From Escherichia phage JK1: a DNA stretch of 64,000 nucleotides. Positions within the stretch are counted from its first letter, which is position 1. Each line of letters begins with the position of its first letter. The stretch is taken from the sequence record MZ436830.1, one strand, 5' to 3'. Below the pieces are notes generated by a model, which saw only the letters and a program-made list of their open reading frames with translations, was not told the DNA's origin and ran no database searches. Positions 671-53,876 of this stretch are shown here, one piece after another. The position numbers and the translations under genes were made by a program.

Positions 671-685
671 TCTTTGACGATTTAA

Positions 686-714
686 GGGACCTTCGGGTCC
701 CTTTAGTTGTTTTT
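686..714 (+). terminator. Intrinsic terminator after gene 23
   Basis: GGGACCUUCGGGUCCC hairpin (UUCG loop) followed by U-rich tract. Confidence 0.75.
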
Positions 715-718
715 ATGG

Positions 719-726
719 TATAAATA
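719..726 (+). promoter_or_regulatory. Late promoter (TATAAATA) for gene 24
   Basis: Exact TATAAATA ~28 nt upstream of ATG 754. Confidence 0.7.
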
Positions 727-753
727 AATCATATAAACCAAAAGGAAAGCGCA

Positions 754-5759: not shown

Positions 5760-5772
5760 AATATTTCCTCAG

Positions 5773-5780
5773 TATAAATA
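5773..5780 (+). promoter_or_regulatory. Late promoter for uvsW
   Basis: TATAAATA ~30 nt upstream of ATG 5810. Confidence 0.65.
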
Positions 5781-5809
5781 TAGATATATTTATTACATGG
5801 TATTTAGAC

Positions 5810-16202: not shown

Positions 16203-16232
16203 ACTATAACACAACACGAGGGACTTGTAAAC
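16203..16232 (-). promoter_or_regulatory. Early promoter (GTTTAC-N18-TATAGT)
   Basis: -35 GTTTAC (16227-16232) and -10 TATAGT (16203-16208) on - strand; part of a 52-bp repeat. Confidence 0.5.
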
Positions 16233-18292: not shown

Positions 18293-20386
18293 TTATCCTT
18301 GAACGAACTTGTAAGGCATGTTTGTAATATCTATGCAAGACGCAATAATTCCAAGAGATGATTCTACTTTCTGTTTAACGTTTGATGAAACAAATGATGC
18401 AAAGTCAACTTTGTCTTCTATTTCAATATCACCTGTCATTGCAACTACTTCGCCGGTTTCCATTAGATGGTCACCGTCATAAATTACCGATTCGGTGAGT
18501 TCTTCTGTGGTCATAACTTCAGCTTGAATAAGTTTTGTATTATTAGATGTTGTTCCGTCATTATTAGAAGCATCAGTTATTTTATTAACTTTAACCATCA
18601 ATCCGCGCGGTAGAATAACTTCAGCTTCTGTTGCTATTCCTAGACTTCCTGGATATACAACATTAACTTTATGTGCGCCGTCAATTGCCCATCCTATTTG
18701 AACTTTAACGTATTCAGGATTTTCTTTATACGCTCTTATTTCGTTTGGATTAATAGTTATTCCTTCTTCATTTTTATCAACTGTTAATTCATTGCGAGCT
18801 TCTGGTTCTAAAAGACCAATACCAGCATGTGTAATTCCAAAACGTCCAAAAATGATAGGAGTTAAAGAAGTAGATACAAAATTTCTGAAGTAGAACACTT
18901 TATTTTTAACTAACGCTTCATATATAGGAGCAGTCATACTTTGAGCACGATAAACTGTAATGCCTTCTGGTATACGGTCACCATTTTCAAAAGCTGAATC
19001 TAAGTTATTTATAGCAGATTCAATTTCTTTTTCACTCATTACATCATATCGTTCTGGATTGTAACGACCTAAAAGAAGATTATTGATGTCAGTATATCCT
19101 GAACCGCAATATTCTCTAATGCCACGCTTTTGTGATGGAGTATATTTAGAACCATCGCGGGCAATAGTAATATCAATCATTGGACCAGCACCAATTCCAG
19201 AAAAACTGTAAATCATTCGTTTGAGGAATTTAGTTTTTGCTGCGTTCCAGGAATTTTTAGTTATTTCTTCCCAGACTTCATCTGGTTGTCCTTTACGATT
19301 TTTATTATGATTAGCAAGCCATTTATCTTTATAATCTTCAAAGAATTGATTTACAGCTGCTGCGTATTTCTCTAAACATTTTATTGAAGTAGTTGGTTCA
19401 TTTTTAATTGCATTAAAAATTACTTCTTTAATTTTTTCTGAAACTTCACCGACTTGACTCATTGGAAAGAATTTATAATCATAGTGAAGTTCATCTGCCG
19501 TTCCTTCAGCAATAATTTTTGCTGCCTTTGTTTTAGAAGCTAATGAATTAATTCCAATTTTCATTTCTTCTGCTTCGGGAATTAAAGGTGCAGTAGCTGG
19601 TTTATTAAAATTAGCTGCTGTAGATTCATACTTCTGGAATAATTCACTTTCAAATCTAGAAGATTCCAATGACTGACTTTGTGCAATTGCTCTACGGGAA
19701 ATTTTAACTTTAACGATTACAGCTTGGTCAGAACGTTTATCGTTTTCTTGCGCAATAGATGCTGCAATTGCCTCATTTTTAGTTACTTGGGCTCCAGTAT
19801 CTTTATTGATATAAACATCACCAACCTTCGATTCAACCTTAGTAAAGAGTTCAGTACTAATTTCTGGAACTCCTGGAATGTCTTCTAGTGATACGTTTTT
19901 ACGATGTATAAGAATATATGCATACTTTTTATCGTAATCCCAGAGTTCCTTAAGAAGGACGTATCTGCCACCTGAACGACTACGGATAAGTCTATCAGCA
20001 ATAACTTGAATTTGTCGAGCTTGACCAGCGGTTTTAGACTTAAGAATACGAAGCATACAAGCATCAATTTTATATTGACGCATTGTTTGCATTGCAACAG
20101 TAAAAACTGAATTGATATAATTAATTGGGCTTGGACCAAGACCTTTCAATTTAGCAATTGAACCTTTAGCAGTTAATGTAAAAGGAACAATATGCATCAT
20201 TTTGTCGCCCATTTTTAAATCACGATTAGTATCACCTCCAGATGTATAGGTACATAAACGAAAGCCTGGTTGTTCAATTGCATCATCAACATGAACTGAA
20301 AAAATTTGTGGTATTTTCTTCTTTGGATTTAAGTTTGTAATCGGAAGAGTAGTATCTTCGTCAAATAATTCTGTAATGAGTTCCAT
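18293..20386 (-). CDS. Second Alt-family ADP-ribosyltransferase paralog (697 aa)
   Basis: Paralog of adjacent ORF: same N-terminal ~230 aa and same ART triad (VYRAQ ... FVSTSL ... EAEVILPRG); late promoter at 20410-20417. Confidence 0.8.
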   Translation of the reverse strand: MELITELFDEDTTLPITNLNPKKKIPQIFSVHVDDAIEQPGFRLCTYTSGGDTNRDLKMGDKMMHIVPFTLTAKGSIAKLKGLGPSPINYINSVFTVAMQTMRQYKIDACMLRILKSKTAGQARQIQVIADRLIRSRSGGRYVLLKELWDYDKKYAYILIHRKNVSLEDIPGVPEISTELFTKVESKVGDVYINKDTGAQVTKNEAIAASIAQENDKRSDQAVIVKVKISRRAIAQSQSLESSRFESELFQKYESTAANFNKPATAPLIPEAEEMKIGINSLASKTKAAKIIAEGTADELHYDYKFFPMSQVGEVSEKIKEVIFNAIKNEPTTSIKCLEKYAAAVNQFFEDYKDKWLANHNKNRKGQPDEVWEEITKNSWNAAKTKFLKRMIYSFSGIGAGPMIDITIARDGSKYTPSQKRGIREYCGSGYTDINNLLLGRYNPERYDVMSEKEIESAINNLDSAFENGDRIPEGITVYRAQSMTAPIYEALVKNKVFYFRNFVSTSLTPIIFGRFGITHAGIGLLEPEARNELTVDKNEEGITINPNEIRAYKENPEYVKVQIGWAIDGAHKVNVVYPGSLGIATEAEVILPRGLMVKVNKITDASNNDGTTSNNTKLIQAEVMTTEELTESVIYDGDHLMETGEVVAMTGDIEIEDKVDFASFVSSNVKQKVESSLGIIASCIDITNMPYKFVQG

Positions 20387-20409
20387 CATATCCTCTCTAG
20401 TGTTTATTC

Positions 20410-28602: not shown

Positions 28603-30017
<1,415 letters not shown>

Positions 30018-30251
30018 TTATTTTTTCTCAACCAATGATTGAATATAATCATGCAGGTCTTTAGATGCTTTACCCCACTTATTTTGATATTCATTTTTGA
30101 GATTAGCGCGTGATTGAGCTAATAAAACATCATTAGTTGGAGGTAAAGATTCTAATCGCTGAATCTGGCGTCCATAAATCATTGCAGCCATCTCGGATTC
30201 ATAAATCAATCCTTTAAGATGTTCAAATTGATGCCATGAAATCATTTGCAT
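30018..30251 (-). CDS. Hypothetical protein (77 aa)
   Basis: ORF. Confidence 0.55.
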   Translation of the reverse strand: MQMISWHQFEHLKGLIYESEMAAMIYGRQIQRLESLPPTNDVLLAQSRANLKNEYQNKWGKASKDLHDYIQSLVEKK

Positions 30252-30541
30252 TTATCCTCTTTTAACTCTTGACGATAATAACATATCATAGTTTTCTGGT
30301 CATGTACATATCGTTTTACATCATTAAGCCAAATACGAAATTCCTGGGAATCTTCAAATGGCATACCGACCCAAGCTTTACCATCAATAACTTTAACTTG
30401 CCAAGATAGTTTAGCTTCATCATATGACTTTATTTGTACAGGCCAATTAGGATGAACTGTTTCTTTCTTTACTTCTAGAGGCTTTGTCGAACAACCAACT
30501 AGAAGACCAATAGATAATATTACTGCTGATAGTTTAATCAT
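30242..30541 (-). CDS. pseT.2: Outer-membrane lipoprotein, o-spanin candidate
   Basis: 99 aa; signal peptide with lipobox LLVGC; ATGA-coupled to upstream i-spanin candidate; T4 pseT.2/pseT.3 are recalled spanin genes. Confidence 0.7.
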   Translation of the reverse strand: MIKLSAVILSIGLLVGCSTKPLEVKKETVHPNWPVQIKSYDEAKLSWQVKVIDGKAWVGMPFEDSQEFRIWLNDVKRYVHDQKTMICYYRQELKEDKCK

Positions 30542-30891
30542 TTAGAAAGGTCCTGGATGTCTTCTGCGAACTTGTTGAAGGAGTTGTTGATTTGTTTTTC
30601 AACCAATCCTGGCTTATGAGCCACCACATCCGCCTTCTTTGCGTCTTTGCGCAGTTTTTCATTTTCACGCTCAATAGCAGCAATTGCCTCACGATTTTTA
30701 TTATTCATCGCATCAATATAATTATACTGAATTCGCAAATTATTTAATGCTAAGGCGTTTTCATTGGCCGTTTTTGTAATTTCAGTAACCGATGTTTCTA
30801 ATCTTTCTACCTTATTTTTTAAAATAATAGATGTTCCGCCAAATACTATTACAAGTAATAGCAAACCTGCTGTCGTATTACTTAATTGCAT
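30538..30891 (-). CDS. pseT.3: Inner-membrane coiled-coil protein, i-spanin candidate
   Basis: 117 aa; N-terminal TM helix LLLLVIVFGG then coiled-coil-like periplasmic region. Confidence 0.7.
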   Translation of the reverse strand: MQLSNTTAGLLLLVIVFGGTSIILKNKVERLETSVTEITKTANENALALNNLRIQYNYIDAMNNKNREAIAAIERENEKLRKDAKKADVVAHKPGLVEKQINNSFNKFAEDIQDLSK

Positions 30892-31388
30892 AAAGTTTTA
30901 ATAACCTCTATAATATCGTCTTGAGAAAGACCGTTAATTAAAATATGATGTTCCGCCGGAGATTTAGAAATTTTAAAGCATGCCGCAACATCTTCTGCCA
31001 TATCCGATGCGCTACGATTTGGATTACTAATTCCAAGACGATGTTTTCCCGTTAAAGGATTAACGATGATATAGCATTTACAGCTATTGATATGAACATT
31101 AGGTTGAGTCTGATTAATGAACACTTCACAATCATACTTAGCGAGTTGATTTTCTAAAAAGACTTTCATCTCTTCAACCGCATCAGGAAGCATATCACGG
31201 GCTTGCTCAAGACGACGATTTCGATATTCTTTAATGGTCGTTTTCCGCTTGACTTGCTTAGCTAAATCTTTCTTAAGATCGGTGATATATCCAACTCGAC
31301 GATTTCCTTTAAATACAGAAATCCCATCTGTAGTATCACCGTATGCTTCAACGACCATTTCAGTAGTAATAAGCTGCAAATCCATCAT
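30882..31388 (-). CDS. alc: Alc (inhibitor of host transcription on cytosine DNA)
   Basis: 167-168 aa; synteny between spanins and rnlA; early promoter upstream. Confidence 0.75.
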   Translation of the reverse strand: MMDLQLITTEMVVEAYGDTTDGISVFKGNRRVGYITDLKKDLAKQVKRKTTIKEYRNRRLEQARDMLPDAVEEMKVFLENQLAKYDCEVFINQTQPNVHINSCKCYIIVNPLTGKHRLGISNPNRSASDMAEDVAACFKISKSPAEHHILINGLSQDDIIEVIKTLCN

Positions 31389-31416
31389 AAAGTCCTCATG
31401 CTATGTCAGTAAGATT

Positions 31417-31446
31417 ACTATAACACAACACGAGGGACTTGTAAAC
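31417..31446 (-). promoter_or_regulatory. Early promoter upstream of alc (copy of 52-bp repeat)
   Basis: GTTTAC (31441-31446) -N18- TATAGT (31417-31422). Confidence 0.5.
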
Positions 31447-31449
31447 AGC

Positions 31450-33037
<1,588 letters not shown>

Positions 33038-33045
33038 AATAAAAT

Positions 33046-33059
33046 GGGCCTTGCGGCCC
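33046..33059 (-). other. GC hairpin between nrdB and denA (RNA structure or terminator)
   Basis: GGGCCGCAAGGCCC followed by AUUUUAUU immediately before denA ATG. Confidence 0.4.
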
Positions 33060-33064
33060 ACTCC

Positions 33065-34243
33065 TTAAAAGTATTTTTTAAAACTCATCATAACTTTATC
33101 ATCAACGTCATTATCAATCTGTGCTACAAGATAAGATGACAGTTCTACTTCTTGCGGCGCGGATTGAACATTATCAGAATTAAGATATTCACGAATCCAA
33201 GGATATGGATGTTTAACCGGAGCATCGGTAATTGGGCATGGAAGACCACACTGTTTCATACGAGATACAGTTAAGTAATCAATAAAGCTCCACATGCTAT
33301 TTGTATTTAATCCAGGAACATCGCCATCTTTAAATAAATGAACTGCCCAATCTTTTTCTTGGCGGTTAACTTCCATGAAAATATCAACTGCTTCTTGTTC
33401 ACACTCTTGAGCAATTTTAACCCATTCATCGCCATCAGTACCGGATTGAAGCTGACGAATAATATATTGAGTGCCTTTAAGGTGAAGCTGCTCATCACGT
33501 GCAATGAACTTCATAATCTTGGCATTACCTTCCATGATTTCCATGTTCTTGTGGAAGTTAAAGGTACACGCGAAAGATACATAAAAACGAATAGCTTCTA
33601 AGGCATTAATAACGTACAAACAGAGGTAAAGAGATTTCATTAAAGCACGTTTAGCTTCGGCTTCTTGTTTAATAGCTCGGTTTAAACGAAAGTCGGCATC
33701 AGGAGATTCTTTAGCTAGTTCTACAAATTCTTTAGCGTTTTCCCAATAACGAGTTTTAGTCAGAACATCATCATAATAACGTCCAATGGATTCAGCACGT
33801 TTCATAATAGCTTCATCTAATACAATCTCATCAAATACCTTCGACGGATCAGTATAAAGATTTCGCATGATATGTGTATATGAACGGCTGTGAATAGTTT
33901 CACTAAAAGTCCACGTAGCAACCCATGTATCAAGGCTCGGGTCTGAAATTAATGACATAAGTACAGCAGACGGCGCACGACCCTGAATGCTATCCAAAAG
34001 TGATTGATACTTCAGATTATTAGTAAAAATATTTTGCTGATACTGAGGAAGCTTATTAAACTGTGCAGCATCCATCATTAAGTTTACTTCTTCAGGCCGC
34101 CAGAAAAATGATAATTGCTTTTCGGTTAAATCTTCAAAAACTTTATGACGTTGAATATCATAACGCGCAATACCAAGGCCTGAACCAAAAAACATAGGTT
34201 CTTTTAAAACATCAACTGGATTTGTATTAAAAACTGTGCTCAT
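33065..34243 (-). CDS. nrdB: Ribonucleotide reductase small subunit (uninterrupted)
   Basis: 392 aa continuous ORF; ferritin-like R2 fold inferred; synteny. Confidence 0.9.
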   Translation of the reverse strand: MSTVFNTNPVDVLKEPMFFGSGLGIARYDIQRHKVFEDLTEKQLSFFWRPEEVNLMMDAAQFNKLPQYQQNIFTNNLKYQSLLDSIQGRAPSAVLMSLISDPSLDTWVATWTFSETIHSRSYTHIMRNLYTDPSKVFDEIVLDEAIMKRAESIGRYYDDVLTKTRYWENAKEFVELAKESPDADFRLNRAIKQEAEAKRALMKSLYLCLYVINALEAIRFYVSFACTFNFHKNMEIMEGNAKIMKFIARDEQLHLKGTQYIIRQLQSGTDGDEWVKIAQECEQEAVDIFMEVNRQEKDWAVHLFKDGDVPGLNTNSMWSFIDYLTVSRMKQCGLPCPITDAPVKHPYPWIREYLNSDNVQSAPQEVELSSYLVAQIDNDVDDKVMMSFKKYF

Positions 34244-34294
34244 AAATTTTCCACTTAGTTAATAGATAGTGACTCGTCCATGAGTCAAATTATA

Positions 34295-36559
34295 TCATAA
34301 TTTACAGGATGAACAATCTTCAGCTTTTGGAGTTTCTATTTCATAATCATCAGTACCAGAACCATCGCGGGTATTATGATAATAGAAATTTTTTCCGCCA
34401 AAATACCAAAAATACAAAAGGTCATCAATCATTATTGACATTGGAACCTTTCCTTTTGGAAAAATCTGCGGGTCATAATATGTATTCGCCGAAGCTGATT
34501 GACAAACCCATTTCAGCATAATAGCTACCTGCGTAAGATAAGGTTTATTACCTTTCTTAGCTAATTTCCATGTATAATCATAGAGGTCTATGTTATGCTC
34601 AATATTGGGCACGACTTGATTAAAGGAGCCCTCTTTTGATTCTTTAACAGAGACTGGTCCACGTGGAGGCTCGATACCGTTTGTACTGTTAGAAACTTGG
34701 GAAGATGACTCACATGGCATAAGTGCTGATAATGTGCTATTACGGATGCCAAAGAGCTTAAGGTCTTCCCGCAGCGACGACCAGTCACAAACGTATTTTG
34801 GAGCTGCGATTTGGTCAATCTTTTTATTGTACCAGTCGATAGGTAATTCGCCTCGAGACCAACGAGTGTCTGAATAATATTCGCAAGGTCCTTTTTCTTT
34901 GGCGAGCTTAATGGATGCTTTAATGAGTCCATACTGTAATCTCTCAAATAGTTCATGTGTTAAATCGTTAGCATCTTCATAAGAAGCAAAGTTACTTGCC
35001 AGCCAAGCTGCATAGTTAGTAACACCTACACCAAGGTTTCGACGCTTTTTAGCTTTTTCTGCTTCAGGAACTGGATATCCTTGGTAATCCAAAAGATTAT
35101 CAAGAGCACGAACTTGAACTTCTGCCAATTCATTAATTTTATCTTGGTCTTGCCAATCGAAGTTATCCAGCACAAATGCAGATAACGTGCACAATCCAAT
35201 TTCAGCATCGGGGCTATTCACATCATTTGTTGGAATAGCAATTTCACAGCACAAGTTACTCTGACGAATAGGTGCCTTTTCACGAATAAATGGAGTATAG
35301 TTATTCGTATTATCAATGAACTGTACATAAATCCTTGCTGTTCCTGAGCGTTCAGTCATGAGCAATTCAAATAGTTCACGGGCTTTAATACGCTTTTTAC
35401 GAATATTAGGATCTTTTTCTGCTGCTTCGTATAATTCACGGAAACGGTCTTGGTCTTTAAAATAAGAATAATAAAGCTCGCCACCCATTTCATGCGGACT
35501 GAACAAAGTAATGTAGTCGTTCTTTCCAAAACGTTCCATCATCAAATCATTCAGTTGAACACCATAATCCATATGACGAATGCGGTTTTCTTCTACGCCT
35601 TTGTTATTTTTCAAAACGAGAAGATTTTCAACTTCCAAATGCCAAATAGGATAATAAGCAGTAGCAGCGCCGCCACGAATTCCACCCTGTGAACATGATT
35701 TAACTGCAGTCTGAAAATGTTTCCAAAAAGGAATAACACCAGTATGACGTACTTCACCCATGCCAATCTTAGAACCTTCGGCACGAATCATACCAACGTT
35801 AATACCAATTCCAGCACGTTTGGAGATATATTCAACAATTGAAGCGGAAGCCTTATTGATAGACTTTAATGAATCACCTGCCTCAATAACAACACATGAA
35901 CTAAACTGTCGAGTCGGAGTACGACAACCAGCCATAATAGGAGTTGGTAATGAAATCTGTCGAGTAGATACTGCTTCATAAAAACGGATAACGTGTTTTA
36001 ATCTATCAACAGGTTCATCTTGATGCAGTGCCATTCCAATAGTCATAAATGCAAACTGTGGAGTTTCATAAATTTGACCAGTGGTTTTATCTTTAACTAA
36101 ATATTTTTCTTTTAATTGCATCGCCCCGGAATAAGTAAATTCCATATCCCGCTCGTGCTTAATTTTTGATTCTAAAAATGTAATTTCTTCTGCTGAATAT
36201 TTTGACAATAATTCAGGGTCATATTTACCTGCATTTACACAATAAGAAATATGGTCAATAAATGAACGTGGTTCATACTGCCCATAAACATGCTTACGAA
36301 GAGCGAACATTAAACAACGTGCAGCTACATATTGGTAATCAGGCTCTTCAACCGAAATAGAATTCGCAGCAGCCTTAATGACAATAGTCTGAATATCATC
36401 AGTTGTCATTCCATCACGGAGATAAGATTTAATATTTTCATATAATTCATAAGGATCTACTGATGTTCCCTCAGCTGCCCAAGATAAAACTTTAATAATT
36501 TTTTGTGGGTCAAAGCTCTGAGAAACACCACTACTTTTGATAACATTAATTAATTGCAT
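34295..36559 (-). CDS. nrdA: Ribonucleotide reductase large subunit
   Basis: 754 aa; class I RNR; synteny. Confidence 0.9.
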   Translation of the reverse strand: MQLINVIKSSGVSQSFDPQKIIKVLSWAAEGTSVDPYELYENIKSYLRDGMTTDDIQTIVIKAAANSISVEEPDYQYVAARCLMFALRKHVYGQYEPRSFIDHISYCVNAGKYDPELLSKYSAEEITFLESKIKHERDMEFTYSGAMQLKEKYLVKDKTTGQIYETPQFAFMTIGMALHQDEPVDRLKHVIRFYEAVSTRQISLPTPIMAGCRTPTRQFSSCVVIEAGDSLKSINKASASIVEYISKRAGIGINVGMIRAEGSKIGMGEVRHTGVIPFWKHFQTAVKSCSQGGIRGGAATAYYPIWHLEVENLLVLKNNKGVEENRIRHMDYGVQLNDLMMERFGKNDYITLFSPHEMGGELYYSYFKDQDRFRELYEAAEKDPNIRKKRIKARELFELLMTERSGTARIYVQFIDNTNNYTPFIREKAPIRQSNLCCEIAIPTNDVNSPDAEIGLCTLSAFVLDNFDWQDQDKINELAEVQVRALDNLLDYQGYPVPEAEKAKKRRNLGVGVTNYAAWLASNFASYEDANDLTHELFERLQYGLIKASIKLAKEKGPCEYYSDTRWSRGELPIDWYNKKIDQIAAPKYVCDWSSLREDLKLFGIRNSTLSALMPCESSSQVSNSTNGIEPPRGPVSVKESKEGSFNQVVPNIEHNIDLYDYTWKLAKKGNKPYLTQVAIMLKWVCQSASANTYYDPQIFPKGKVPMSIMIDDLLYFWYFGGKNFYYHNTRDGSGTDDYEIETPKAEDCSSCKL

Positions 36560-36876
36560 AAGTCCTCAACTTGAAAATCGTCTTTAAACAATCGGTTAAC
36601 TATATGAGCTATTATATCACCATGACACGGCTTTGGTTTACATGTGCATCCTAGCCTCATTCCACGTAAAGGCTCTAAATGTGCTTTAGTTATTTCTCCG
36701 GATTTAATTCGACGTATAAAATCTTTTTTGAATAATTCAATGGCAGCCTCCCGGCTGCCAGCATCTTTACCGACGTAATTTCCCCAAAATGTACCACGGT
36801 GAATATTAACATCAAAGTCGGATTTGTATTTATTCACTACCCGGCATAGACGGCCCGGTTGGTAATAATTCTTCAT
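36550..36876 (-). CDS. Hypothetical protein (108 aa)
   Basis: ORF overlapping nrdA start. Confidence 0.6.
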
Positions 36877-37093
36877 ATTGTTTTTCCGTTAATACAGTAA
36901 TATCATAGTAACAATCGGAAGAAGTTTTAACTGTGGAAATTTTATTGTCAAAATACTCACGAGTCATTTTATGAGTATAGTATTTTTTACCATAAATGGT
37001 AATAGGCTGTTCTGGTCCTGGAACTTCTAACTCGCTTGGATTAGGAAGTGTAAAAAGAACGACACCAGAAGTATCTTTAAATCGTAAAATCAT
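36830..37093 (-). CDS. Hypothetical protein (87 aa)
   Basis: ORF. Confidence 0.55.
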
Positions 37094-37950
37094 ATTGCCA
37101 TTTTCCCTTTAATTGCTGGATGCGATTCATAATTTTCAAGGATAAAATCTTTCGGTTTCATGTATTCAGTTAACCAGTAAAGCTGTGTTTCGGTGTCACA
37201 ATTTCCAAACTCTATAGGCCAATCAATTTTAAGTTCACATAGTTCTTTAGGCTCACGACGTAAAATTTCTTTACATTGCTCAGTATGATTCATATAGATG
37301 TGAGTATTACCACCAGAAAATATCAAATCTCCTGGGATAAGATTACACATCTTAGCCACAATATGCGTCAAGGCAGCGTACGAGGCAATGTTGAATGGCA
37401 AGCCCAAGAAAACATCTACACTTCTTTGGTACCATTGTAAATCAAGATAACCATTACGCACATTAAACTGATAGAACATATGACAGGGCGGTAATGCCAT
37501 TTGATTGATTTCAGCTGGATTCCATGCTGAAACGATTTGACGTCGATCAGTTGGTAATTTTTTAATACGATCAATAGTTTCAACTAATTGATCCACACCA
37601 CCGAAATCACGCCATTGTTTACCGTATATAGGACCAAGTTCACCACTATGATATCCTAGGTCTTTAGCCTGGTTTTCATAGTTATCGTCCCAAATAGTTT
37701 TACCTTGAATAAGACTACCATGAGTGCGAAGACGTAAATCATTAACATTGGTAGAACCGGAAATAAACCATAAAAGCTCAGCAATGCATGCATTCCAGGC
37801 GAGCTTCTTAGTTGTTACTGCAGGAAAACCTTTGGTTAAATCCCATCGTAATTTAGTACCGAACAAAGCAATTGTTCCTGTGCCCGTTCGGTCATCGGTT
37901 TCATAGCCATTTTCAAAAATGTCTTTAATTAAATCTTGGTATTGTTTCAT
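37090..37950 (-). CDS. td: Thymidylate synthase (uninterrupted, no intron)
   Basis: 286 aa continuous ORF; active-site LPPCH; C-terminal ...[10 protein letters not shown]. Confidence 0.95.
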
Positions 37951-37994
37951 TTAGTACCTTATATAAATTATAATACATTTTATGAAGCTAATAA

Positions 37995-38342
37995 TTAATA
38001 CGGTTTAGCATCAAATTTTCTCTCAATTTCAGGCGTGAAATATAATTCTTTACCGCGTTTGGAAAAGCGACCAATAATATGATAATTATTCTCATCAAAC
38101 GTAATATTACCAATATCCATAGCTTTCAACCAAATATCGATATTTCTATCCAGCTTTATGTCAAAATTCCAATACGGAGAACTATTACCGAAAATACTGC
38201 AAGCGGATTCAGTGAAACAGCTACTATAAATCTTGTCTTTAGGAACTACTAATTGATAGACACCTTTAATAAACTGAGGACCCTGCCACTTTGGCTGTTT
38301 CTCGTCTTTTTCTAACAGAATAGGGTAATAATTAAAATTCAT
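37995..38342 (-). CDS. Hypothetical protein (115 aa) between frd and td
   Basis: ORF with ATG; no recognisable motif. Confidence 0.55.
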   Translation of the reverse strand: MNFNYYPILLEKDEKQPKWQGPQFIKGVYQLVVPKDKIYSSCFTESACSIFGNSSPYWNFDIKLDRNIDIWLKAMDIGNITFDENNYHIIGRFSKRGKELYFTPEIERKFDAKPY

Positions 38343-38361
38343 ATTTCCGCCACGCGTTATT

Positions 38362-39188
<827 letters not shown>

Positions 39189-39199
39189 ATTATCTCCTA

Positions 39200-39532
39200 T
39201 TAAAAAGGATCAGGAACATATCCGCTAGCTTTAATCATTTTAATTAACGTTAACATTCCTTTGTTAACTGCTCGTGAGATTTCATCAAAAACTTCATCAC
39301 TAAAAAGTTCTAACACGCCCTTCTGAACTTTTAATTTACAGCCAACAATTTCTTCATCGCCTATAGTAAATTCATTACCACCAATTCCACCGAAAAACTT
39401 AATTACACCAGTTAACTGTCTTCCACGAGAATATGGGTCGTGTGATAAAGTAATATGAGTCACCCCGGGTACAGTTTTAAATTGGCAGCGAATATTTACT
39501 TGTGAAATTCCAGTTACATGAATGTCAGACAT
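39200..39532 (-). CDS. Hypothetical protein (110 aa)
   Basis: ORF. Confidence 0.6.
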   Translation of the reverse strand: MSDIHVTGISQVNIRCQFKTVPGVTHITLSHDPYSRGRQLTGVIKFFGGIGGNEFTIGDEEIVGCKLKVQKGVLELFSDEVFDEISRAVNKGMLTLIKMIKASGYVPDPF

Positions 39533-39542
39533 AATATTTTCC

Positions 39543-39785
39543 TCAAATAGACTTTTTCACAATTTTCCAATCAGCTTTAAACTGATCGACGTCAGAGTGA
39601 TAAATCCAAAATCCTGCGCTTTCACCGTCTTCATAAAGCGGACACCCATCACATTCATCTTCCCATCCCATGCCACGTAAAAGGTGTTCAGCTTTTTCAA
39701 CAAGTTCAGAATCTTTACCGATGATATTAAAATACCATTTACCTCTAACTTCCGAATCTTTGATGCTCTGACGTTGTAATCTCAT
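39543..39785 (-). CDS. Hypothetical protein (80 aa)
   Basis: ORF with GAGGAG RBS and early promoter. Confidence 0.6.
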   Translation of the reverse strand: MRLQRQSIKDSEVRGKWYFNIIGKDSELVEKAEHLLRGMGWEDECDGCPLYEDGESAGFWIYHSDVDQFKADWKIVKKSI

Positions 39786-39811
39786 TTTATTCTCCTCAAG
39801 TTGATAAGGCT

Positions 39812-39841
39812 ATAGTATCATTACCATAGCCCGTTGTAAAC
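39812..39841 (-). promoter_or_regulatory. Early promoter (GTTTAC-N18-TACTAT) inside inverted repeat
   Basis: -35 39836-39841, -10 39812-39817; GGCTAT/ATAGCC inverted repeat. Confidence 0.45.
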
Positions 39842-39843
39842 AA

Positions 39844-40104
39844 TTATTTTTGAATTTTATCGAGCCACTTACCAAGCTTAATCATTTCTTTAGTAGCCTT
39901 TTCCATACTTCTGAACTTGACCAATAGAGGATAGGTATCGACACCCATAACTAAACTGGTTACAAGACTGTGTTCACCCACAAGCCATAACGAATACGTT
40001 TGAATATCGAGCCCGTAATTTCTGTCTTTATGGACCCGTACACCCATCACTTCAAATTTCTCACTAGCTTTTTCTACCGCATCCAGGAAATCATCTTTAG
40101 TCAT
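39844..40104 (-). CDS. Hypothetical protein (86 aa)
   Basis: Start moved to internal ATG 40104 to avoid 41-nt overlap. Confidence 0.5.
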   Translation of the reverse strand: MTKDDFLDAVEKASEKFEVMGVRVHKDRNYGLDIQTYSLWLVGEHSLVTSLVMGVDTYPLLVKFRSMEKATKEMIKLGKWLDKIQK

Positions 40105-40105
40105 A

Positions 40106-40486
40106 TTAGGCCTTAAAAGTTTTTCGCAAAAGTTCAATGATTTCATCTACATTGTTTTCATCTACAATGCAGTGAATTTTTGTTACGCCAGAAACCTTGT
40201 CTTTGACTTCATTTTCTTCAGAAGTCGGTTCTTTATACTCACGAAAACAATGAAATTCATCTTCGCAAATTTCTAAAAGTCTATCTTTGAGGTAAAAATG
40301 CTTTCCATTTGCGCATTCAATGTGTTTTACTGCTTTATATCCATTAGCGACGGAAACTTCTTTAACTTCAAACCATCCGCCATTATCTCGAATAGCTTTA
40401 ACGATTGATGAATTAGAACGTGGGCTATAATTAATAAATGTATCAATAAGTCTTGGAACAAGTTCATACTTTTTGCCAATATACAT
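40106..40486 (-). CDS. Hypothetical protein (126 aa)
   Basis: ORF. Confidence 0.6.
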   Translation of the reverse strand: MYIGKKYELVPRLIDTFINYSPRSNSSIVKAIRDNGGWFEVKEVSVANGYKAVKHIECANGKHFYLKDRLLEICEDEFHCFREYKEPTSEENEVKDKVSGVTKIHCIVDENNVDEIIELLRKTFKA

Positions 40487-40530
40487 TATGTTTTCCTCAT
40501 TTTAACGGGGCTGTAATAGCCCCTTAATAA

Positions 40531-40761
40531 TTATTGTTCAATCAGTCCCATGTAAAATTCTGCGTCTTCAGAATCCATGCCGTCACAATACTCATTAGCC
40601 ATAAAGCGGGTGAGGTCTTCAAGAGGACCTTCAATGACAATAGAAAAATTGCAATAATTGGGATCATCGTGAATACTTGTGATACTAAGCTCAGGATAAC
40701 GATTACGAATAATTTCTTCAATATATTCAAAATCAACGATGTCAATATCAACTTTAGCCAT
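40531..40761 (-). CDS. Hypothetical acidic protein (76 aa)
   Basis: ATG 40761 with AAGAGGAAA RBS. Confidence 0.55.
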
Positions 40762-40804
40762 ATTATTTTCCTCTTTAATCATCAGCAGTATTGCCGATAG
40801 TTGT

Positions 40805-40834
40805 ATAGTACCACAGTCCTTGTGGTATGTAAAC
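40805..40834 (-). promoter_or_regulatory. Early promoter, member of repeated promoter-leader cassette
   Basis: GTTTAC (40829-40834) -N18- TACTAT (40805-40810) with conserved GTGGTACTATACAACTATC block. Confidence 0.5.
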
Positions 40835-40845
40835 TGTTTTGTGAA

Positions 40846-40884
40846 AAAATTTTTGAAATAAAAAAGGGGACCCTAGAGGTCCCC
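40846..40884 (-). terminator. Intrinsic terminator after gene 32
   Basis: GGGGACC-CUAGA-GGUCCCC hairpin then UUUUUUAUUU on - strand. Confidence 0.75.
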
Positions 40885-40906
40885 AATTAATTAGTAATAT
40901 AATCTA

Positions 40907-41815
40907 TTAAAGGTCATTCAAAAGGTCATCCAGGTCCGTGTCATCAGCACTAGATGAACTACCAGAGCTTGAGCTCATAAAATCATCTTCAGTTTTTGTA
41001 TTGAAGTCATCAACATTGAATGCATCCAAATCATCAGCAACTTTATCAGCTTTCTTAGCGGCAGTTGCTGCAGCACCACCCATAGCAGCAGTTCCCATAA
41101 CTTGACTGAACTTAGTGCTCAGTTCTTCAAACGATTTGAATTTATCTTTAGAAGTCATTTCAGAAAGGTCAACCATTTGTTCGAACAGTTCTTTCTGGAA
41201 AGATTCATCATCAATGTTTGGAATCGCAGATTGATTCAGGAATTTAGATTCATCGTAGTTACTAAAACCAGAAACTTGTTTAACTTTCAGTACAAAGTTA
41301 GCACCTTCCCAAGGACAAGTTACATCAACCGGAGTTTCACCCATTTCAACATCAACTGCAATCATTGCGTTGATTTTATCCCAGATTTTCTTACCGAAAC
41401 GGTATTTAAATACTTTACCTTCATTTTCTGGAGCAGCTGGGTCTTTTACTACAAGAATGTTAGCCCAGTAAGAAGTTTTACGTTTAACAAGACTGTACTC
41501 TTTATTGTCAGTGTTGTACAGATCATTTTTACTAATGTATTGACATACTGGGCAAGAATCGTAATCACCGTGGGTAGATGAACAATTTTCGATATACCAT
41601 TTACCATTTTTCTTGAAACCGTGATTTACAAGAATTGCGAATGGTGCTTGTTCATCATTTTTAGACGGAAGAAAACGAATTACTGCTTGACCGTTACCCG
41701 CATTGTCGAGTTTCAGTTTCCACTCGCCTTTATCTTCAGAAGAAAAACCACCTTTATTTCCAGCCAGTTTAGCCATTTGTGCAGCGAGTTCAGCAGTAGA
41801 TTTACGTTTAAACAT
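40907..41815 (-). CDS. 32: Single-stranded DNA-binding protein gp32
   Basis: 302 aa; acidic Ser/Asp-rich C-terminus ...[22 protein letters not shown]; leader with operator. Confidence 0.95.
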
Positions 41816-41890
41816 TTTTATTTCCTTTTTAATTTAATTAACAGTTGGTGCTATGACGATGTATGACCTCATAGCTGGTCAGTGAGATAA
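41816..41890 (-). promoter_or_regulatory. Gene 32 translational operator (pseudoknot region plus AU-rich unstructured leader)
   Basis: Leader reads ...CACUGACCAGCUAUGAGGUCAUACAUCGUCAUAGCACC...UUAAUUAAAUUAAAAAGGAAAUAAAAAUG, as remembered for the T4 gp32 autoregulatory site. Confidence 0.6.
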
Positions 41891-41891
41891 T

Positions 41892-41914
41892 TATAATCTA
41901 TTTATAATAAGCAA
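41892..41914 (-). promoter_or_regulatory. Nested middle (MotA box TTGCTTA -12- TATAAT) and late (TATAAATA) promoters for gene 32
   Basis: - strand reads ATTGCTTATTATAAATAGATTATAAT; TATAAATA at 41899-41906. Confidence 0.55.
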
Positions 41915-42568
41915 TTAATACTTACAAGATTTCACAGTTTCAATGAAAACATTTTTAGCTTTCTGTGAATCAATATTTAAAATTTTTCTATAAGCCTTTA
42001 ACTTTATAGAATAATTATTCCAGACTAAATTATCAGTCTGTTCATCATGTTTATCGATTATATTTAAAAACGAATCAAGCAAGATAAACGTCTCAAACGA
42101 AATTATATTCGATTGCAGAAGTTTAAAAATATAACTTGACTGAACTTTTGGATTATACTCAAAGATTTCTTTAAAAGCAGAAACTTCAACTTTTTTACTA
42201 AAATAATAAATGTTGCGAATATCTTCTTCAAACTTAAATTTAATTTGCTTTAAGCGTCCGATATATTCACGATAAAACACAAGTGCATCAGCGTCAGAGA
42301 TGTCGCCAATCCAAGCATCTTGGTTAGCAACCAAATTACTTATAAAGATTAAAGCAAGTTCCTTTAATTTATATTTTTCTGATAACTTCTGGAAAAAATA
42401 CTTATCCCTTCGCTTTTGATAAGCGGCATCAGACACCCGCATGCACCAATTATACTTAATAACATCATACTTTCCATTCATATGCTGTTTTATCATTAAG
42501 TATAATTTATAAACTGATTTACCATCAATGTATCTTTCACCACCAGCAGGCATGCGGAGTTTAATCAT
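41915..42568 (-). CDS. 59: Helicase loader gp59
   Basis: 217 aa; synteny directly upstream of gene 32. Confidence 0.9.
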   Translation of the reverse strand: MIKLRMPAGGERYIDGKSVYKLYLMIKQHMNGKYDVIKYNWCMRVSDAAYQKRRDKYFFQKLSEKYKLKELALIFISNLVANQDAWIGDISDADALVFYREYIGRLKQIKFKFEEDIRNIYYFSKKVEVSAFKEIFEYNPKVQSSYIFKLLQSNIISFETFILLDSFLNIIDKHDEQTDNLVWNNYSIKLKAYRKILNIDSQKAKNVFIETVKSCKY

Positions 42569-42903
42569 AGTAGAAAATCTAATGTATTAGTTTTTTCACA
42601 ACGAACAACAGAAGGACGTAAAAGATTTTCGTCAATAGCTTCCGACTGAATTTTTTCAATTATACCCGAAGGAATAAATTTAGCAAATTGAGTTTCAGGA
42701 ATAGAGTTTTCTTCCAAGAATGCTGTCGTAGCTTCAAGATAACTCATTCCAAACTCTTCTACCATTTTTTCAATAATAAATCCATTTTCTTGACGATCAA
42801 GAAGCTTTGCTATTTCATCCTTTTCTTTCTTGATTGAAAGTTCTTTTTCTGAAAGACCGGTCTCATCGACCGGGCGAATATCATTTAGAGAAAACTGTGT
42901 CAT
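42565..42903 (-). CDS. 33: Late transcription co-activator gp33
   Basis: 112 aa from ATG 42903 (ORF-track start is TTG). Confidence 0.85.
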   Translation of the reverse strand: MTQFSLNDIRPVDETGLSEKELSIKKEKDEIAKLLDRQENGFIIEKMVEEFGMSYLEATTAFLEENSIPETQFAKFIPSGIIEKIQSEAIDENLLRPSVVRCEKTNTLDFLL

Positions 42904-43150
42904 AAAGTTCAACTACCTCTTCAGTTTCAGCTTCAAACACATCACGGTTATCTTTATGATACAAAGCTAATAGACGATTAAACATCTTACCATCAACGCC
43001 AAGTTCATCTTTGGCACGAATTCGAATATCTTTAATCAGTTCATTATAACCGGAAATTTTCAGTTTATGATCAGATGCTTCTTTAATAAATTTAGCCAAG
43101 TCTTCGCCATGGATAGCTTCATCAAATTCAACCATTTCTTTTTTAGCCAT
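42881..43150 (-). CDS. dsbA: Double-stranded DNA-binding protein DsbA
   Basis: 89 aa; synteny between rnh and 33. Confidence 0.8.
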   Translation of the reverse strand: MAKKEMVEFDEAIHGEDLAKFIKEASDHKLKISGYNELIKDIRIRAKDELGVDGKMFNRLLALYHKDNRDVFEAETEEVVELYDTVFSK

Positions 43151-43158
43151 TATTCACC

Positions 43159-44076
43159 TCAAAATTCATTAATGCTATTAGTTAATTTAGAAAGACCCGC
43201 TTTTACAAAATATGAATAAATTTTGCCACGCGGTGGTAATTTATATGAATTATAGTAATTCACAATGTTTGAAGCAATATTATCAGGAATATAATCAAAA
43301 TCAATTAGAACTAAATTTTCTTTATAACGATTATATTCAGATTCTGTGAGAAGCACCTTAGCTTGCTCACGGTCATTAGCAATAGCTTCAACGATTGAAG
43401 TTTTCATTGAAGGAGTTCGTTCACCTTCAACTCTGGTAAACCAAAAGTCAGATCGTACTTTAACTGAAGCAACGTTATCCTTTTTGTCGCCTTTAAGGAT
43501 TTTAGTCATACAGTCAATTTCAGCAGAACCGCTTTTAATTTTAACCCATTTCTTATGCATCGGTGACCATTGCTTAACATTTGGGTATTTGTGAAGCTGT
43601 GTAAAGTCACCATCCGATGAAATGATTAAAATCTTGTGTCCTTCTAAAGAGAACTTTTTAACAAGAACAGCAATGTGGTCATCTGCTTCATACTTATCAA
43701 TATCCATAACAATGTATGGCATATAAGCTTTCAATTCATCTATAACTTTATGACTGGATTCAAAATAACCTTCCCAGTCCCAAGTCGATTCTTCTCGTGC
43801 TTTTCCACGGTTTTTCTTATAATAATAAGCGAAATCACGACGCCAGTATCCAGATTTCGCGTTATCAATACACAGTACAATTTTAGTGTATCCAAGCGTT
43901 TTTGCTTTTTTGACATTAAACTTAATTGAGTTCAATATCAAATGACGAACCATTGATAAATTAATTTTTTCTTTATCTGGGAAGTTTACCAGAGCAGTTG
44001 AAAGCGCAATTTGACTAAAGTCAATAAAGCAAATTCCTTCTTTGTAATCTTCATCCAGCATCATTTCTAAATCCAT
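43159..44076 (-). CDS. rnh: RNase H / 5'-3' flap exonuclease
   Basis: 305 aa from ATG 44076; FEN-family acidic clusters. Confidence 0.9.
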   Translation of the reverse strand: MDLEMMLDEDYKEGICFIDFSQIALSTALVNFPDKEKINLSMVRHLILNSIKFNVKKAKTLGYTKIVLCIDNAKSGYWRRDFAYYYKKNRGKAREESTWDWEGYFESSHKVIDELKAYMPYIVMDIDKYEADDHIAVLVKKFSLEGHKILIISSDGDFTQLHKYPNVKQWSPMHKKWVKIKSGSAEIDCMTKILKGDKKDNVASVKVRSDFWFTRVEGERTPSMKTSIVEAIANDREQAKVLLTESEYNRYKENLVLIDFDYIPDNIASNIVNYYNSYKLPPRGKIYSYFVKAGLSKLTNSINEF

Positions 44077-49907: not shown

Positions 49908-52900
49908 ATGGCTACTTTAAAACAAATACAATTTAAAAGAAGCAAAACCGCAGGTGCACGTCCTGCTGCTTCAGTATTAGCCGAAGGTGAATTGGCTATA
50001 AACTTAAAAGATAGAACAATTTTTACTAAAGATGATACAGGAAATATCATTGATCTAGGTATTGCTAAAGGCGGTCAAATTGATGGAAATGTAACTATTG
50101 ATGGAACTTTACGCGTCAATGGACCAATAAACAACTTTGGAAATTTTTCTACAAGTGGTACTATTACGGCAAGTAATATTGTTTCTGCTACAGTATTCAG
50201 ATCAACATCCGGTTCATTTTATACAAGAGCAATAAATGATACTGCAAATGCCCATCTTTGGTTTGAAAATACAAATGGCTCAGAACGTGGCGTTTTATAT
50301 TCAAAACCGCAGTCTGAAAATGAAGGCGTAATTACAATGCGTGTTCGTCAAGGAACCGCTGCGGGAGCTCAAAATTCAGAATTTCATTTCATTTCTACTG
50401 ATGGCGGTATCTTCCAGGCACGCAAATTAACTGCTTTAACTTCTATTAGTACACCAACTATTAGTGTTAATTTAATTAATCATGATTCTAAAGCCTTTGG
50501 ACAATACGATTCACAATCTTTGGTTAACTATGTTTATCCTGGAACCGGTGAAACAAATGGTGTAAACTATCTTCGTAAAGTTCGTGCTAAGTCAGGCGGA
50601 ACTATGTGGCATGAAATCTGTACAGCTCAGACAGGACAAGCTGATGAAATGTCATGGTGGACTGGTAATACTCCTCAGTCTAAACAATACGGTATTCGTA
50701 ATGACGGACGAATGGCTGGACGTAATAGCCTTGCATTAGGTACATTCACTACAAATTTCCCGTCTAGTGATTATGGCAACGTCGGTGTAATGGGCGATAA
50801 ATATCTTGTTCTCGGTGACACTGTAACTGGCTTGTCATACAAAAAAACTGGTGTATTTGATCTAGTTGGCGGTGGATATTCTGTTGCTTCTATTACTCCT
50901 GACAGTTTCCGTAGTACTCGTAAAGGTATATTTGGTCGTTCCGAGGACCAAGGCACCACATGGATTATGCCTGGAACTAATGCCGCTTTCTTGTCTGTTC
51001 AAACGCAAGCTGATAATAACAATGCTGGAGACGGCCAGACGCATATTGGGTACAATGCTGGCGGTAAAATGAGTCATTATTTCCGCGGTAAAGGCAAAAC
51101 TAATATTAATACTCAGGAAGGTGTAGACGTTAACCCGGGTATATTGAAGTTAACCACCGGCGGTGAAAGTATTAGCTTTAATGCCGCAACTGGAAGTATT
51201 AATTCTACATTAGCTTTTCGTCTTAATAAAGGCATAATTATTGATGGACCTGATAATCAGGGATTCCAGTTTAACGCCCCGACGGCTGCAGATGGTACTA
51301 GAAGTATATACTGGAACAGTGGTACTCGCGCAGGTCAAAACAAAAGCCCTGTTACAGTTAAAGTGTGGGGTAATTCATTTAACGCATCGGGCGATCGTGC
51401 TCGTGAAACGGTTTTTGAAGTAGCTGATGGGCAAGGTTACCATTTTTATTCTCAGCGAGTTGCTCCCGGATCAGGTTCTACTGTCGGACCTATTCAATTT
51501 CGAGTTAATGGTGGTTTATTAACTTCTGGTGGTATTACATCATCTGGTTCTATTGTTACTGAATCAAGTTTAGTTGCCAATAATGGCATGTCAGTAAATG
51601 GTCAGGCTAAATTTGGCGGAACAGCAAACGCACTGAGAATTTGGAACGCTGAATACGGTGTTATTTTCCGTCGTTCTGAAAGTAACTTTTACATTATTCC
51701 AACCAATCAAAATGAAGGCGAAAGCGGAGACATTCATAGCTCTTTGAGACCTGTAAGAATAGGATTAAACGATGGCATGGTTGGGTTAGGAAGAGATTCT
51801 TTTATAGTAGATCAAAATAATGCTTTAACTACGATAAACAGTAACTCTCGCATTAATGCCAACTTTAGAATGCAATTAGGGCAGTCGACATATATTGATG
51901 CAGAATGCACTGATGCCGTTAGACCTGCAGGGGCTGGTTCATTTGCCTCGCAAAATAATGAAAACGTCCGTGCTCCGTTCTATATGAATATTAATCGCAC
52001 AGATACAAGTACTTACGTTCCAATTGTTAAACAGAGATACGTACAAAATAATAGTTGCTATTCTATTGGTACTTTAATAAATGGCGGTAACTTCAGAGTT
52101 CATTATCATGAAGGTGGTGATGGCGGTTCTACTGGCGCGATTATAAAGGATTTAGGTTGGGAATTTAATAAAAACGGTGATTTTTACTCTCCTGGTAAAT
52201 TAGGTGCTGGAAATATTCGTATCGGAACAGACGGTAATATTACGGGTGGTTCTGGTAATTTTGCTAACTTGAATACCACATTAAACCGTAAGGTCAATTC
52301 CGGATTTGTAACATACGGTGCAACTGCTGGATGGTATAAATTCGCTACAGTAACGATGCCACAATCTACTTCTACTGTTTCATTTACTATAACTGGTGGT
52401 AAAGGATTTAATACTGGACTGTTTACACAGTGTGCTATAACAGAAATTGTTCTTCGTACTGGTAATGACCGCCCAGCAGGTTTAAACGCCGTGATGTATA
52501 CCAGAACAGCTGCAGGTCTTACTGATATTGCTGTAGTTAATACCTCAGGAAATACATATGATATCTATGTTGAATCGGGTACTTATGCCAACCAATTAGC
52601 TTATACTTGGCATACAGTTGATAATGCTACCGTAGAAGTTATCGGCGCTTTTGGTCCTACTCAAAACCCAGTAGATTCTTTGCCAGTTGATCATGTTAAA
52701 GGCCAAGTAGCTAACATGCTTAACAACCTAGTAGACACTGGTAAAGTAAAACGCTATGTAGCAGAGTCGGAAATTGCTATTAATAACCCAACTGGTATTC
52801 GTATTACGAGTAATTATGATAGATCAGGTTCTAATTCCGTTTTATTTCGAAATGACGGTGGAAGCTTCTATATTTTACTGACCGACAAAAACTCTTCAGA

Positions 52901-53846
52901 CGGCGATAATAAAGCAACTGAAGGTGATTGGAATGGAAAACGACCATTTTCAATTGATATGACTGCTGGTACTGTTCGTCTTGGCGAAAATACTTCTTTT
53001 GGTAAAGATGTTACTATTGATGGAAGCATTAATTCACGAGTTAAAGTTGTCGGACAGTGGAATGTTGGCTTTTCTGATATTTCAGATGTGACTCGTGACC
53101 GTTCTGCATTTTTAGTGAATACGGGTGGCATTTCCAAGACAAGTCAATCTTATTACCCGCTATTTTCTGGATACAGTTTTTTAACTGACGCAGGTTATCG
53201 CCAATCGTTTGAATTTGGATGGTTAGGTGTTTCTGGTACTTGGCGTCAAGGCATTATTCGCATGCGTGGTGACAACCCATCGGGGCAACAGGCTCGTTGG
53301 ACTTTTGATATGGACGGAACATTTTATGCTCCTATACTATCATGCGGATCTGCGAGAGCATTCGGTGTCAATACATCAAATGGTCTCGGTGGAAACAGTA
53401 TAACATTTGGTGATAGCGATACTGGTATTAAGCAAAATGGCGATGGATTATTAGACATATATGCGAACAGCGTACAAGTGTTCCGTTTCCAAAACGGTGA
53501 TTTGTACTCATACAAAAATATAAATGCTCCAAACGTTTATATTCGTTCTGATATTCGTTTAAAATCCAACTTTAAGCCTATCGAAAATGCACTTGATAAA
53601 GTTGAAAAACTTAACGGTGTCATTTACGATAAAGCTGAATACATCGGTGGAGAGGCAATTGAAACTGAAGCGGGTATTGTGGCTCAAACGTTACAAGACG
53701 TTTTACCAGAAGCTGTCCGTGAAACAGAAGACAGCAAGGGTAATAAAATACTCACTGTTTCTTCTCAAGCCCAGATCGCTCTTCTGGTTGAAGCTGTGAA
53801 AACGCTTTCTTCTCGTGTAAAAGAACTTGAATCTAAACTTATGTAA
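49908..53846 (+). CDS. 37: Long tail fiber distal subunit gp37 with C-terminal intramolecular chaperone domain
   Basis: 1312 aa; C-terminal ~107 aa carry the S-D-x-R-x-K style autocleavage/chaperone signature ([10 protein letters not shown]...). Confidence 0.9.
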
Positions 53847-53876
53847 AAGAGGGCTTCGGCCCTCTAAGGATTTTTA

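Follow-up and report, generated by a model that had tools for sequence, protein, structure and literature searches.

Does Escherichia phage JK1 carry, at its td and nrdB loci, natural recipients for the introns and homing endonuclease genes of T4? The window analysed here, the whole 64-kb stretch taken from this phage (MZ436830.1), is a segment of a Tequatrovirus (T4-like) genome that is collinear by blastn with T4 (NC_000866) 105,841-168,903, and in T4 terms its limits are the 3' end of gene 23 and rIIB. T4 annotates td and nrdB as joined coding sequences (CDSs) with I-TevI and I-TevIII, respectively, and places SegG between genes 32 and 59, just as the original prediction on this DNA had stated. 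That prediction described the JK1 genes as intron-minus, endonuclease-minus recipient alleles. The comparisons made here support this description through the T2-like gene layout, the AAG codon 42 and the exon junction of nrdB, and invaded relatives of td. The block is of the T2 type and unoccupied, with the sites of all T4 elements empty, and its genes would very probably behave as recipients in mixed infection.

Intron and endonuclease content of the block

The two genes had been reported as uninterrupted (286 aa for td and 392 aa for nrdB), and this proved to be true, as each is a single open reading frame (ORF) with one full-length Pfam match. When the genes were aligned with the T4 exons, both intron positions were seamless, and they were gapless once the T4 introns had been removed. 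The 1017-nt td intron of T4 (...TTGGGT / CTACCG...) is missing, and the window junction lies between CDS nt 549 and 550, at 37402 and 37401. Similarly, the 598-nt nrdB intron of T4 (...TTTGCGT / GTACCT...) is missing at the junction of CDS nt 676 and 677, at 33568 and 33567. An intron in nrdA or nrdD had been named as possible evidence to the contrary. However, nrdA aligns with T4 in one collinear piece with no such insertion, and nrdD is not concerned, since it is located at T4 43.5-46.4 kb, outside the T4 105.8-168.9 kb that corresponds to the window. No RNA family was detected at the Rfam gathering score in the whole 64 kb, and a permissive Rfam search (E ≤ 1) of 30000-44000 for degenerate intron remnants gave 0 matches. 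With no frame-breaking insertion and no covariance-model match to the group I intron (Rfam Intron_gpI) in any of the three genes, td, nrdB and nrdA are read as ordinary continuous frames.

T4 has six homing endonuclease loci within the span of the window, namely segD, segE, nrdB intron/I-TevIII, nrdB.1/mobE, td intron/I-TevI and segG (loci listed in PMC2988022, Table 1). All six are empty in the window, where a short spacer or a seamless junction is found instead, and the alignment junctions at these loci are 681/742, 5796/5816, 33567/33568, 34243-34299, approximately 37401/37402 and 41878-41914. The space between genes 32 and 59, previously estimated at about 100 bp, was measured as 99 bp.

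Profile searches with Pfam, PHROGs and six-frame hidden Markov models (HMMs) found no homing endonuclease in the window. Among the 97 non-overlapping ORFs with at least 50 aa, 95 were scanned with Pfam, which revealed no HNH, LAGLIDADG or NUMOD family; the other two were the tail-fibre genes 34 and 37, both of which were within the six-frame searches. Using tblastn with T4 I-TevI, I-TevIII, MobE, NrdB.1, SegD, SegE and SegG, we obtained nothing below E = 0.3. In the six-frame searches, 1186 segments of at least 25 aa were searched by phmmer with 13 homing endonuclease proteins of T4 or Yersinia phage phiD1 (NC_027353), and with two custom HMMs for the N-domains of GIY-YIG and HNH enzymes. These searches detected no homing endonuclease: denA alone came near significance (E = 0.055), and the best value for the custom HNH HMM was 0.64, on an antisense fragment. 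When ORFs that had no Pfam match or were inserted relative to T4 were compared with PHROGs, all were assigned to 'unknown function' and none was nuclease-like.

The presence of denA, which encodes endonuclease II, requires one correction. The window had been said to contain no free-standing GIY-YIG or HNH ORF, and while the HNH part of this statement held, as no HNH homing endonuclease of the Mob, I-TevIII or Hef kind was detected, the GIY-YIG part did not, because denA has a GIY-YIG domain and lies 3 bp from the nrdB stop, just outside the 33065-37950 interval under discussion. It is the sole GIY-YIG match in the window, and no GIY-YIG homing endonuclease of the I-TevI, I-TevII or Seg kind was found there. 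The gene is annotated as an ORF of 144 aa (136 aa from a downstream ATG) and is 99.3% identical to T4 denA; it belongs to phrog_1111 (endonuclease), and along its full length it matches 'Endonuclease II', PDB 2WSH (1.2e-86). It is without a C-terminal DNA-binding extension, and its locus has the same position in T4, T2 and phiD1 rather than a sporadic distribution. DenA is a core enzyme of host-DNA degradation whose catalytic fold is common to the Seg and I-Tev enzymes. Judged by these sequence relationships, denA is not a homing endonuclease, and the broader claim that no homing endonuclease ORF is present in the block stands.

Some local features of these genes are recorded here. Window nrdB is collinear with spliced T4 nrdB except for a variable patch at approximately aa 160-195 (33650-33760; CDS nt ~480-600), where 28-38 of 60 nt are identical to T4, compared with more than 95% elsewhere, and nrdB encodes 392 aa, against 388 aa in T4, because of an indel in this patch. 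The 3' end of td (37090-37260; CDS nt ~690-860) is a mosaic patch with 16-36 of 60 nt identical to T4. The local protein sequence differs in this patch, the other form being VISGLPYKFRYLSTKEQLKYVLKLR, and the remaining td protein is highly conserved. A hairpin in the nrdA-nrdB spacer was considered as a terminator but was rejected, as a T-run is lacking and shuffled sequence gave a similar pattern count.

Target sites and invaded relatives

In nrdB, the flanks of the empty insertion site (±60 nt) match the T4 exons in all but 2 of the 120 nt, those at -5 and +17. I-TevIII cuts 14 and 16 bp upstream from the point of insertion (PMC1865063), and the cleavage and insertion-site sequence is conserved in the window, with positions -16 to -14 matching T4 exactly. 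In T2, MobE nicks nrdB within codon 42, beside the block coding for FFWRPEE, and phages that lack mobE have AAG as this codon (PMC2790892). The window has the features expected of a MobE recipient from that study, since mobE is missing between nrdA and nrdB, AAG stands at codon 42 and the FFWRPEE block is kept. Compared with T2, the predicted MobE target has 1 nt different in each of the two blocks and 3 of 61 nt different over the surrounding target.

The same nrdB site is occupied in phiD1, whose nrd-td region is 97.8% identical to that of the window overall. While window nrdB has no intron, phiD1 nrdB carries one of 1091 nt exactly between CDS nt 676 and 677, and this intron contains a 269-aa ORF annotated as 'intron-like DNA endonuclease', which is of the full-length I-TevIII type described for RB3. 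The phiD1 exon flanks differ from those of the window by one base in ±40 nt, at -5. The phiD1 td gene (NC_027353, extract 6082-6943) is annotated as two fragments; its span is 862 nt compared with 861 nt in the window, so the record probably contains a one-base frameshift or sequencing error.

The td gene of the window is an unexpectedly divergent allele, with a nt identity of 77% to T4 and likewise to T2, whose td genes are 96% identical to each other, and about 105 phage records belong to this allele class at an identity of at least 95%. The I-TevI site differs from that of T4 at 12 of 45 positions, all of which are synonymous, leaving the 15 encoded residues unchanged. By the same measure, T2 has 6 of 45 positions different from T4, and the window has 13 of 45 different from T2. 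The site requirements of I-TevI were taken from PMC2988022 and PMC5009752, and the requirement for a CNNNG cleavage motif from PMC5009752. The critical C-27 and G-23 are retained in the window, where CAAAG replaces CAACG, and position -1 is C, which is T in T4. From its sequence, the window td site may be susceptible to I-TevI, even as a substantially diverged one.

The window-type td allele is found with an intron in two other phages, e11/2 (NC_024125) and Pu-Krd-SF4 (PQ759884), of which regions 351-1656 and 433-2309, respectively, were compared with window 37090-37950. In e11/2, the td exons are identical to the window at 530 of 549 and 306 of 312 nt, and the 445-nt intron encodes a truncated I-TevI fragment of 55 aa. 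In Pu-Krd-SF4, exon 2 is identical at 309 of 312 nt, and the 1016-nt intron contains an intact I-TevI of 245 aa. Outside the conversion tract, the exons of both phages are 96-99% identical to the window. The only donor-type (T4/T2-like) stretch in e11/2 td runs from about -28 to +9, that is, from just upstream of the I-TevI cut to just past the insertion, and includes T at -1. In Pu-Krd-SF4, the donor-type tract covers at most 5 nt on the exon-2 side, and exon 1 is mosaic further upstream. The short tract has the signature of homing with co-conversion, matching double-strand-break repair after a cut at -23/-25, and these comparisons are good evidence that a window-type td allele can be invaded. 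The tract would also supply the T at -1 needed by the group I 5' splice site. Alternatively, the td intron may have reached e11/2 and Pu-Krd-SF4 by ordinary flanking recombination.

Cleavage and homing in JK1 itself would be predicted from the missing elements, the collinear exons, the conserved targets and the naturally invaded derivatives. In a mixed infection, I-TevI would bind across 37387-37431 and cut near CAAAG, at -23 and -25 relative to the insertion site, and MobE would nick window nrdB at codon 42. For an intact I-TevIII, of the type in RB3 or phiD1, the cuts would fall 14 and 16 bp upstream of the 33568/33567 junction, and SegG, SegE and SegD would act on gene 32, uvsW and the 23/24 region. 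Through donor-templated repair, the intron or endonuclease gene would then be copied in along with flanking donor sequence, which amounts to marker exclusion.

Several points weigh against the expectation that the block is a recipient. Among the 12 differences from T4 at the I-TevI site, 5 fall within the primary binding region, a stretch of 20 bp with the insertion at its centre (5 of 20 positions), and 4 within the spacer just 3' of the motif. The middle triplet of the CNNNG motif is AAA and not AAC as in T4, and some CNNNG triplets are poor I-TevI substrates (PMC5009752). T4 I-TevIII is truncated and defective, and it is MobE that mobilises the nrdB intron in trans (PMC2790892); because T4 I-TevIII is inactive, transfer of the nrdB intron from T4 would be indirect, via MobE. 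The target-site comparison covered the sites of I-TevI, MobE and I-TevIII. Finally, the frequency of the intron-free state is known from rough figures, as the database counts are redundant (RefSeq and GenBank copies, several T4 isolates): at a coverage of at least 80%, 197 records contain the T4 td intron and 118 the T4 nrdB intron (260 and 191, respectively, when any match is counted), compared with 986 phage records that match the nrd-td block, or about 20% and 12%, respectively. The 986 records were matched by a 5.4-kb query around the td/nrdB block, with a best identity of 98.0% and with vB_Eco_EL, KMB22, phiD1, RB14 and RB18 among the best matches; td at lower stringency matches 1390 records.

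The divergence of the td site raises the alternative that this gene is a homing-resistant escape variant, intron-free because its synonymous changes block I-TevI binding or cleavage. The 12 changes, five of them in the primary binding region, would fit such a variant, as would the C at -1, which would not support a G.U pair at the group I 5' splice site, and the finding that not every CNNNG triplet is cleaved (PMC5009752). However, the divergence of the site (27%) is no more than comparable to that of the whole td gene (23%), so nothing suggests selection focused on I-TevI recognition, and for the same reason we rejected an unusual divergence of the site as a mark of resistance. Furthermore, C-27 and G-23 are kept, and e11/2 and Pu-Krd-SF4 have the same allele with an intron and a donor-type tract from about -28 to +9 or +5. 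I-TevI also tolerates sequence variation (PMC2988022, PMC5009752), and T2 is a recipient despite its own six differences at the site. An escape variant is therefore unlikely. It is likewise doubtful that the synonymous site changes of this allele class of about 105 records, including C at -1, lower homing efficiency, although a td class with lower homing could help to explain why approximately four-fifths of T4-like td genes are intron-free despite efficient homing in the laboratory.

Another possibility is that the lineage formerly had the introns and endonuclease genes and lost them secondarily in a cycle of gain, decay and loss, in which case the sites were not empty ancestrally. Such a cycle is the standard model (PMC5009752, Fig. 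6 legend), and decayed forms do occur in relatives, such as the truncated I-TevI of e11/2, td introns without an endonuclease ORF and the defective I-TevIII of T4. On the other hand, the td flanks of the window keep the synonymous variants of their own lineage through -28 to +12. A precise deletion from an e11/2-like allele would leave a donor-type tract, and the absence of such a tract in the window counts against secondary loss, as does the lack of any remnant of the six elements in the tblastn and six-frame searches. Loss by recombination with an empty allele would look identical to an ancestrally empty site, and we regard secondary loss as a whole as improbable. It is less probable still that a homing endonuclease has gone unrecognised among the small ORFs that are present in the window and absent from T4. 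These ORFs are insertions at gene junctions relative to T4 and are known to PHROGs as 'unknown function' or to Pfam as DUF7247, as might be expected of such a gene. However, none of them has a nuclease motif or a nuclease profile match, their sizes are just 81-115 aa, and the 115-aa ORF is found at the same place in T2, phiD1 and Pu-Krd-SF4. Empty T2-type sites, acting as recipients, thus remain the preferred reading of the block.

Genomic setting of the window

The order denA, nrdB, nrdA, nrdA.1, nrdA.2, td, 115-aa ORF and frd is that of the standard T-even nucleotide-precursor block, in which nrdA.1 and nrdA.2 (36550..37093, minus strand) are small overlapping genes, the same as in T4. The G+C content of the window is 32-40% throughout. 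The coordinates of the genes, spacers and sites are collected in Table 1.

Table 1. Genes, empty loci and predicted target sites in the JK1 window (., strand not assigned)
Feature	Position	Strand	Basis or remarks
23-24 spacer, empty segD site	671..753	.	T4 106522-107310 (segD) without counterpart
inh-uvsW spacer, empty segE site	5760..5809	.	T4 112045-112679 (segE) without counterpart
denA (endonuclease II)	32627..33061	-	Pfam GIY-YIG PF01541, 24.9 bits against a gathering score of 22.6
nrdB, uninterrupted, 392 aa	33065..34243	-	single ORF; Pfam Ribonuc_red_sm 3.1e-37, full-length
Empty nrdB intron insertion site	33567..33568	-	between CDS nt 676 and 677; T4 598-nt intron absent
Predicted I-TevIII cut positions	33581..33584	-	mapped from PMC1865063; identical to T4 exon 1; predicted
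Predicted MobE target, 5' part of nrdB	34088..34130	-	polymorphic nt 114-131, codon 42 = AAG (34118-34120), FFWRPEE block
nrdA-nrdB spacer, 51 bp, empty nrdB.1/mobE site	34244..34294	-	T4 139720-140419 without counterpart; T2 likewise 51 bp
nrdA, uninterrupted, 754 aa	34295..36559	-	single full-length Pfam match; one collinear T4 alignment
nrdA.1 (DUF4326)	36550-36876	-	Pfam and T4 annotation
nrdA.2 (DUF5496)	36830-37093	-	Pfam and T4 annotation
td, uninterrupted, 286 aa	37090..37950	-	single ORF; Pfam Thymidylat_synt 1.5e-94, full-length
Unoccupied I-TevI homing site (-30..+15)	37387..37431	-	insertion between 37402 and 37401; CNNNG motif CAAAG at 37424-37428
32-59 spacer, 99 bp, empty segG site	41816..41914	-	T4 SegG (147909-148541) absent; 100% identical to T2
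Small ORFs inserted or replaced relative to T4	37995-38342, 38943-39188, 39200-39532, 39844-40146, 29697-30017	-	T4 comparison

The 115-aa ORF between td and frd (37995-38342, minus strand) belongs to phrog_1928 (unknown function) and has no Pfam match. It is a presence/absence polymorphism, being present in T2, phiD1 and Pu-Krd-SF4, whereas td and frd overlap directly in T4 and e11/2. A single-sequence AlphaFold model of this ORF had a pLDDT of 39.7 and was uninformative. The small ORFs within 38943-39532, 39844-40146 and 29697-30017 (minus strand) encode 81 aa (phrog_3183), 110 aa (DUF7247), 100 aa (phrog_4423) and 106 aa (phrog_2364), and the small inserted ORFs are located at junctions in the frd-32 and pseT regions.

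Elsewhere in the window, two full-length Alt-like ADP-ribosyltransferase genes stand in tandem (16232-18289 and 18293-20389, minus strand), encoding 685 and 698 aa, both with Pfam ADPrib_exo_Tox. T4 has one alt together with the remnants alt.-1 and alt.-2, and T2 has two genes like the window. Within 49908-54662 (plus strand), gene 37 encodes 1312 aa, and the product of gene 38 is a glycine-rich adhesin of 261 aa (Pfam GP38). The gene 37/38 module is the T2 type of receptor recognition and not the T4 type with a gp38 chaperone, and the stretch has either no T4 counterpart or just approximately 76% identity to T2.

Comparison with T2 and T4

Uninterrupted td and nrdB have been documented since the 1980s. 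The intron-free state of both genes is clearly the majority state; it is not special to JK1 and was already known for T2-type phages. The significance of the present analysis beyond annotation is small. For annotation, it describes a T2-type Tequatrovirus with empty homing sites, in which denA should be neither mistaken for a homing GIY-YIG gene nor overlooked. In addition, window td and the td genes of e11/2 and Pu-Krd-SF4 form a natural before-and-after pair with a very short co-conversion tract, which could be used in teaching or as the basis for studying the tolerance of I-TevI on a naturally divergent site.

The layout of T2 (AP018813) is that of the window, with an nrdB of 1179 nt, a 51-bp nrdA-nrdB spacer and a continuous td of 861 nt. 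In both phages nrdA, nrdA.1 and nrdA.2 have equal sizes, a 348-nt ORF lies between td and frd, and AAG is codon 42 of nrdB; their 99-bp spacers between genes 32 and 59 are 100% identical. Differences between the two are found in td, which is 77% identical, and in nrdB, which is 90% identical (1058/1179). T2 is the classical recipient, used experimentally in T4 x T2 crosses, and in such co-infections its regions of marker exclusion coincide with the cleavage sites of T4 endonucleases, while the progeny inherit segG, mobE and the introns with high frequency (PMC2790892, PMC2988022).

T4 resembles the window in having orthologous flanking genes in the same order and an nrdB exon junction that differs at only 2 of 120 nt. 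In contrast with the window, T4 has the six mobile elements, with group IA introns in td and nrdB, its td exons are 77% identical and there is no 115-aa ORF between td and frd. With its 15 homing endonucleases, T4 is an outlier, and most T-even genomes have few (PMC2988022).

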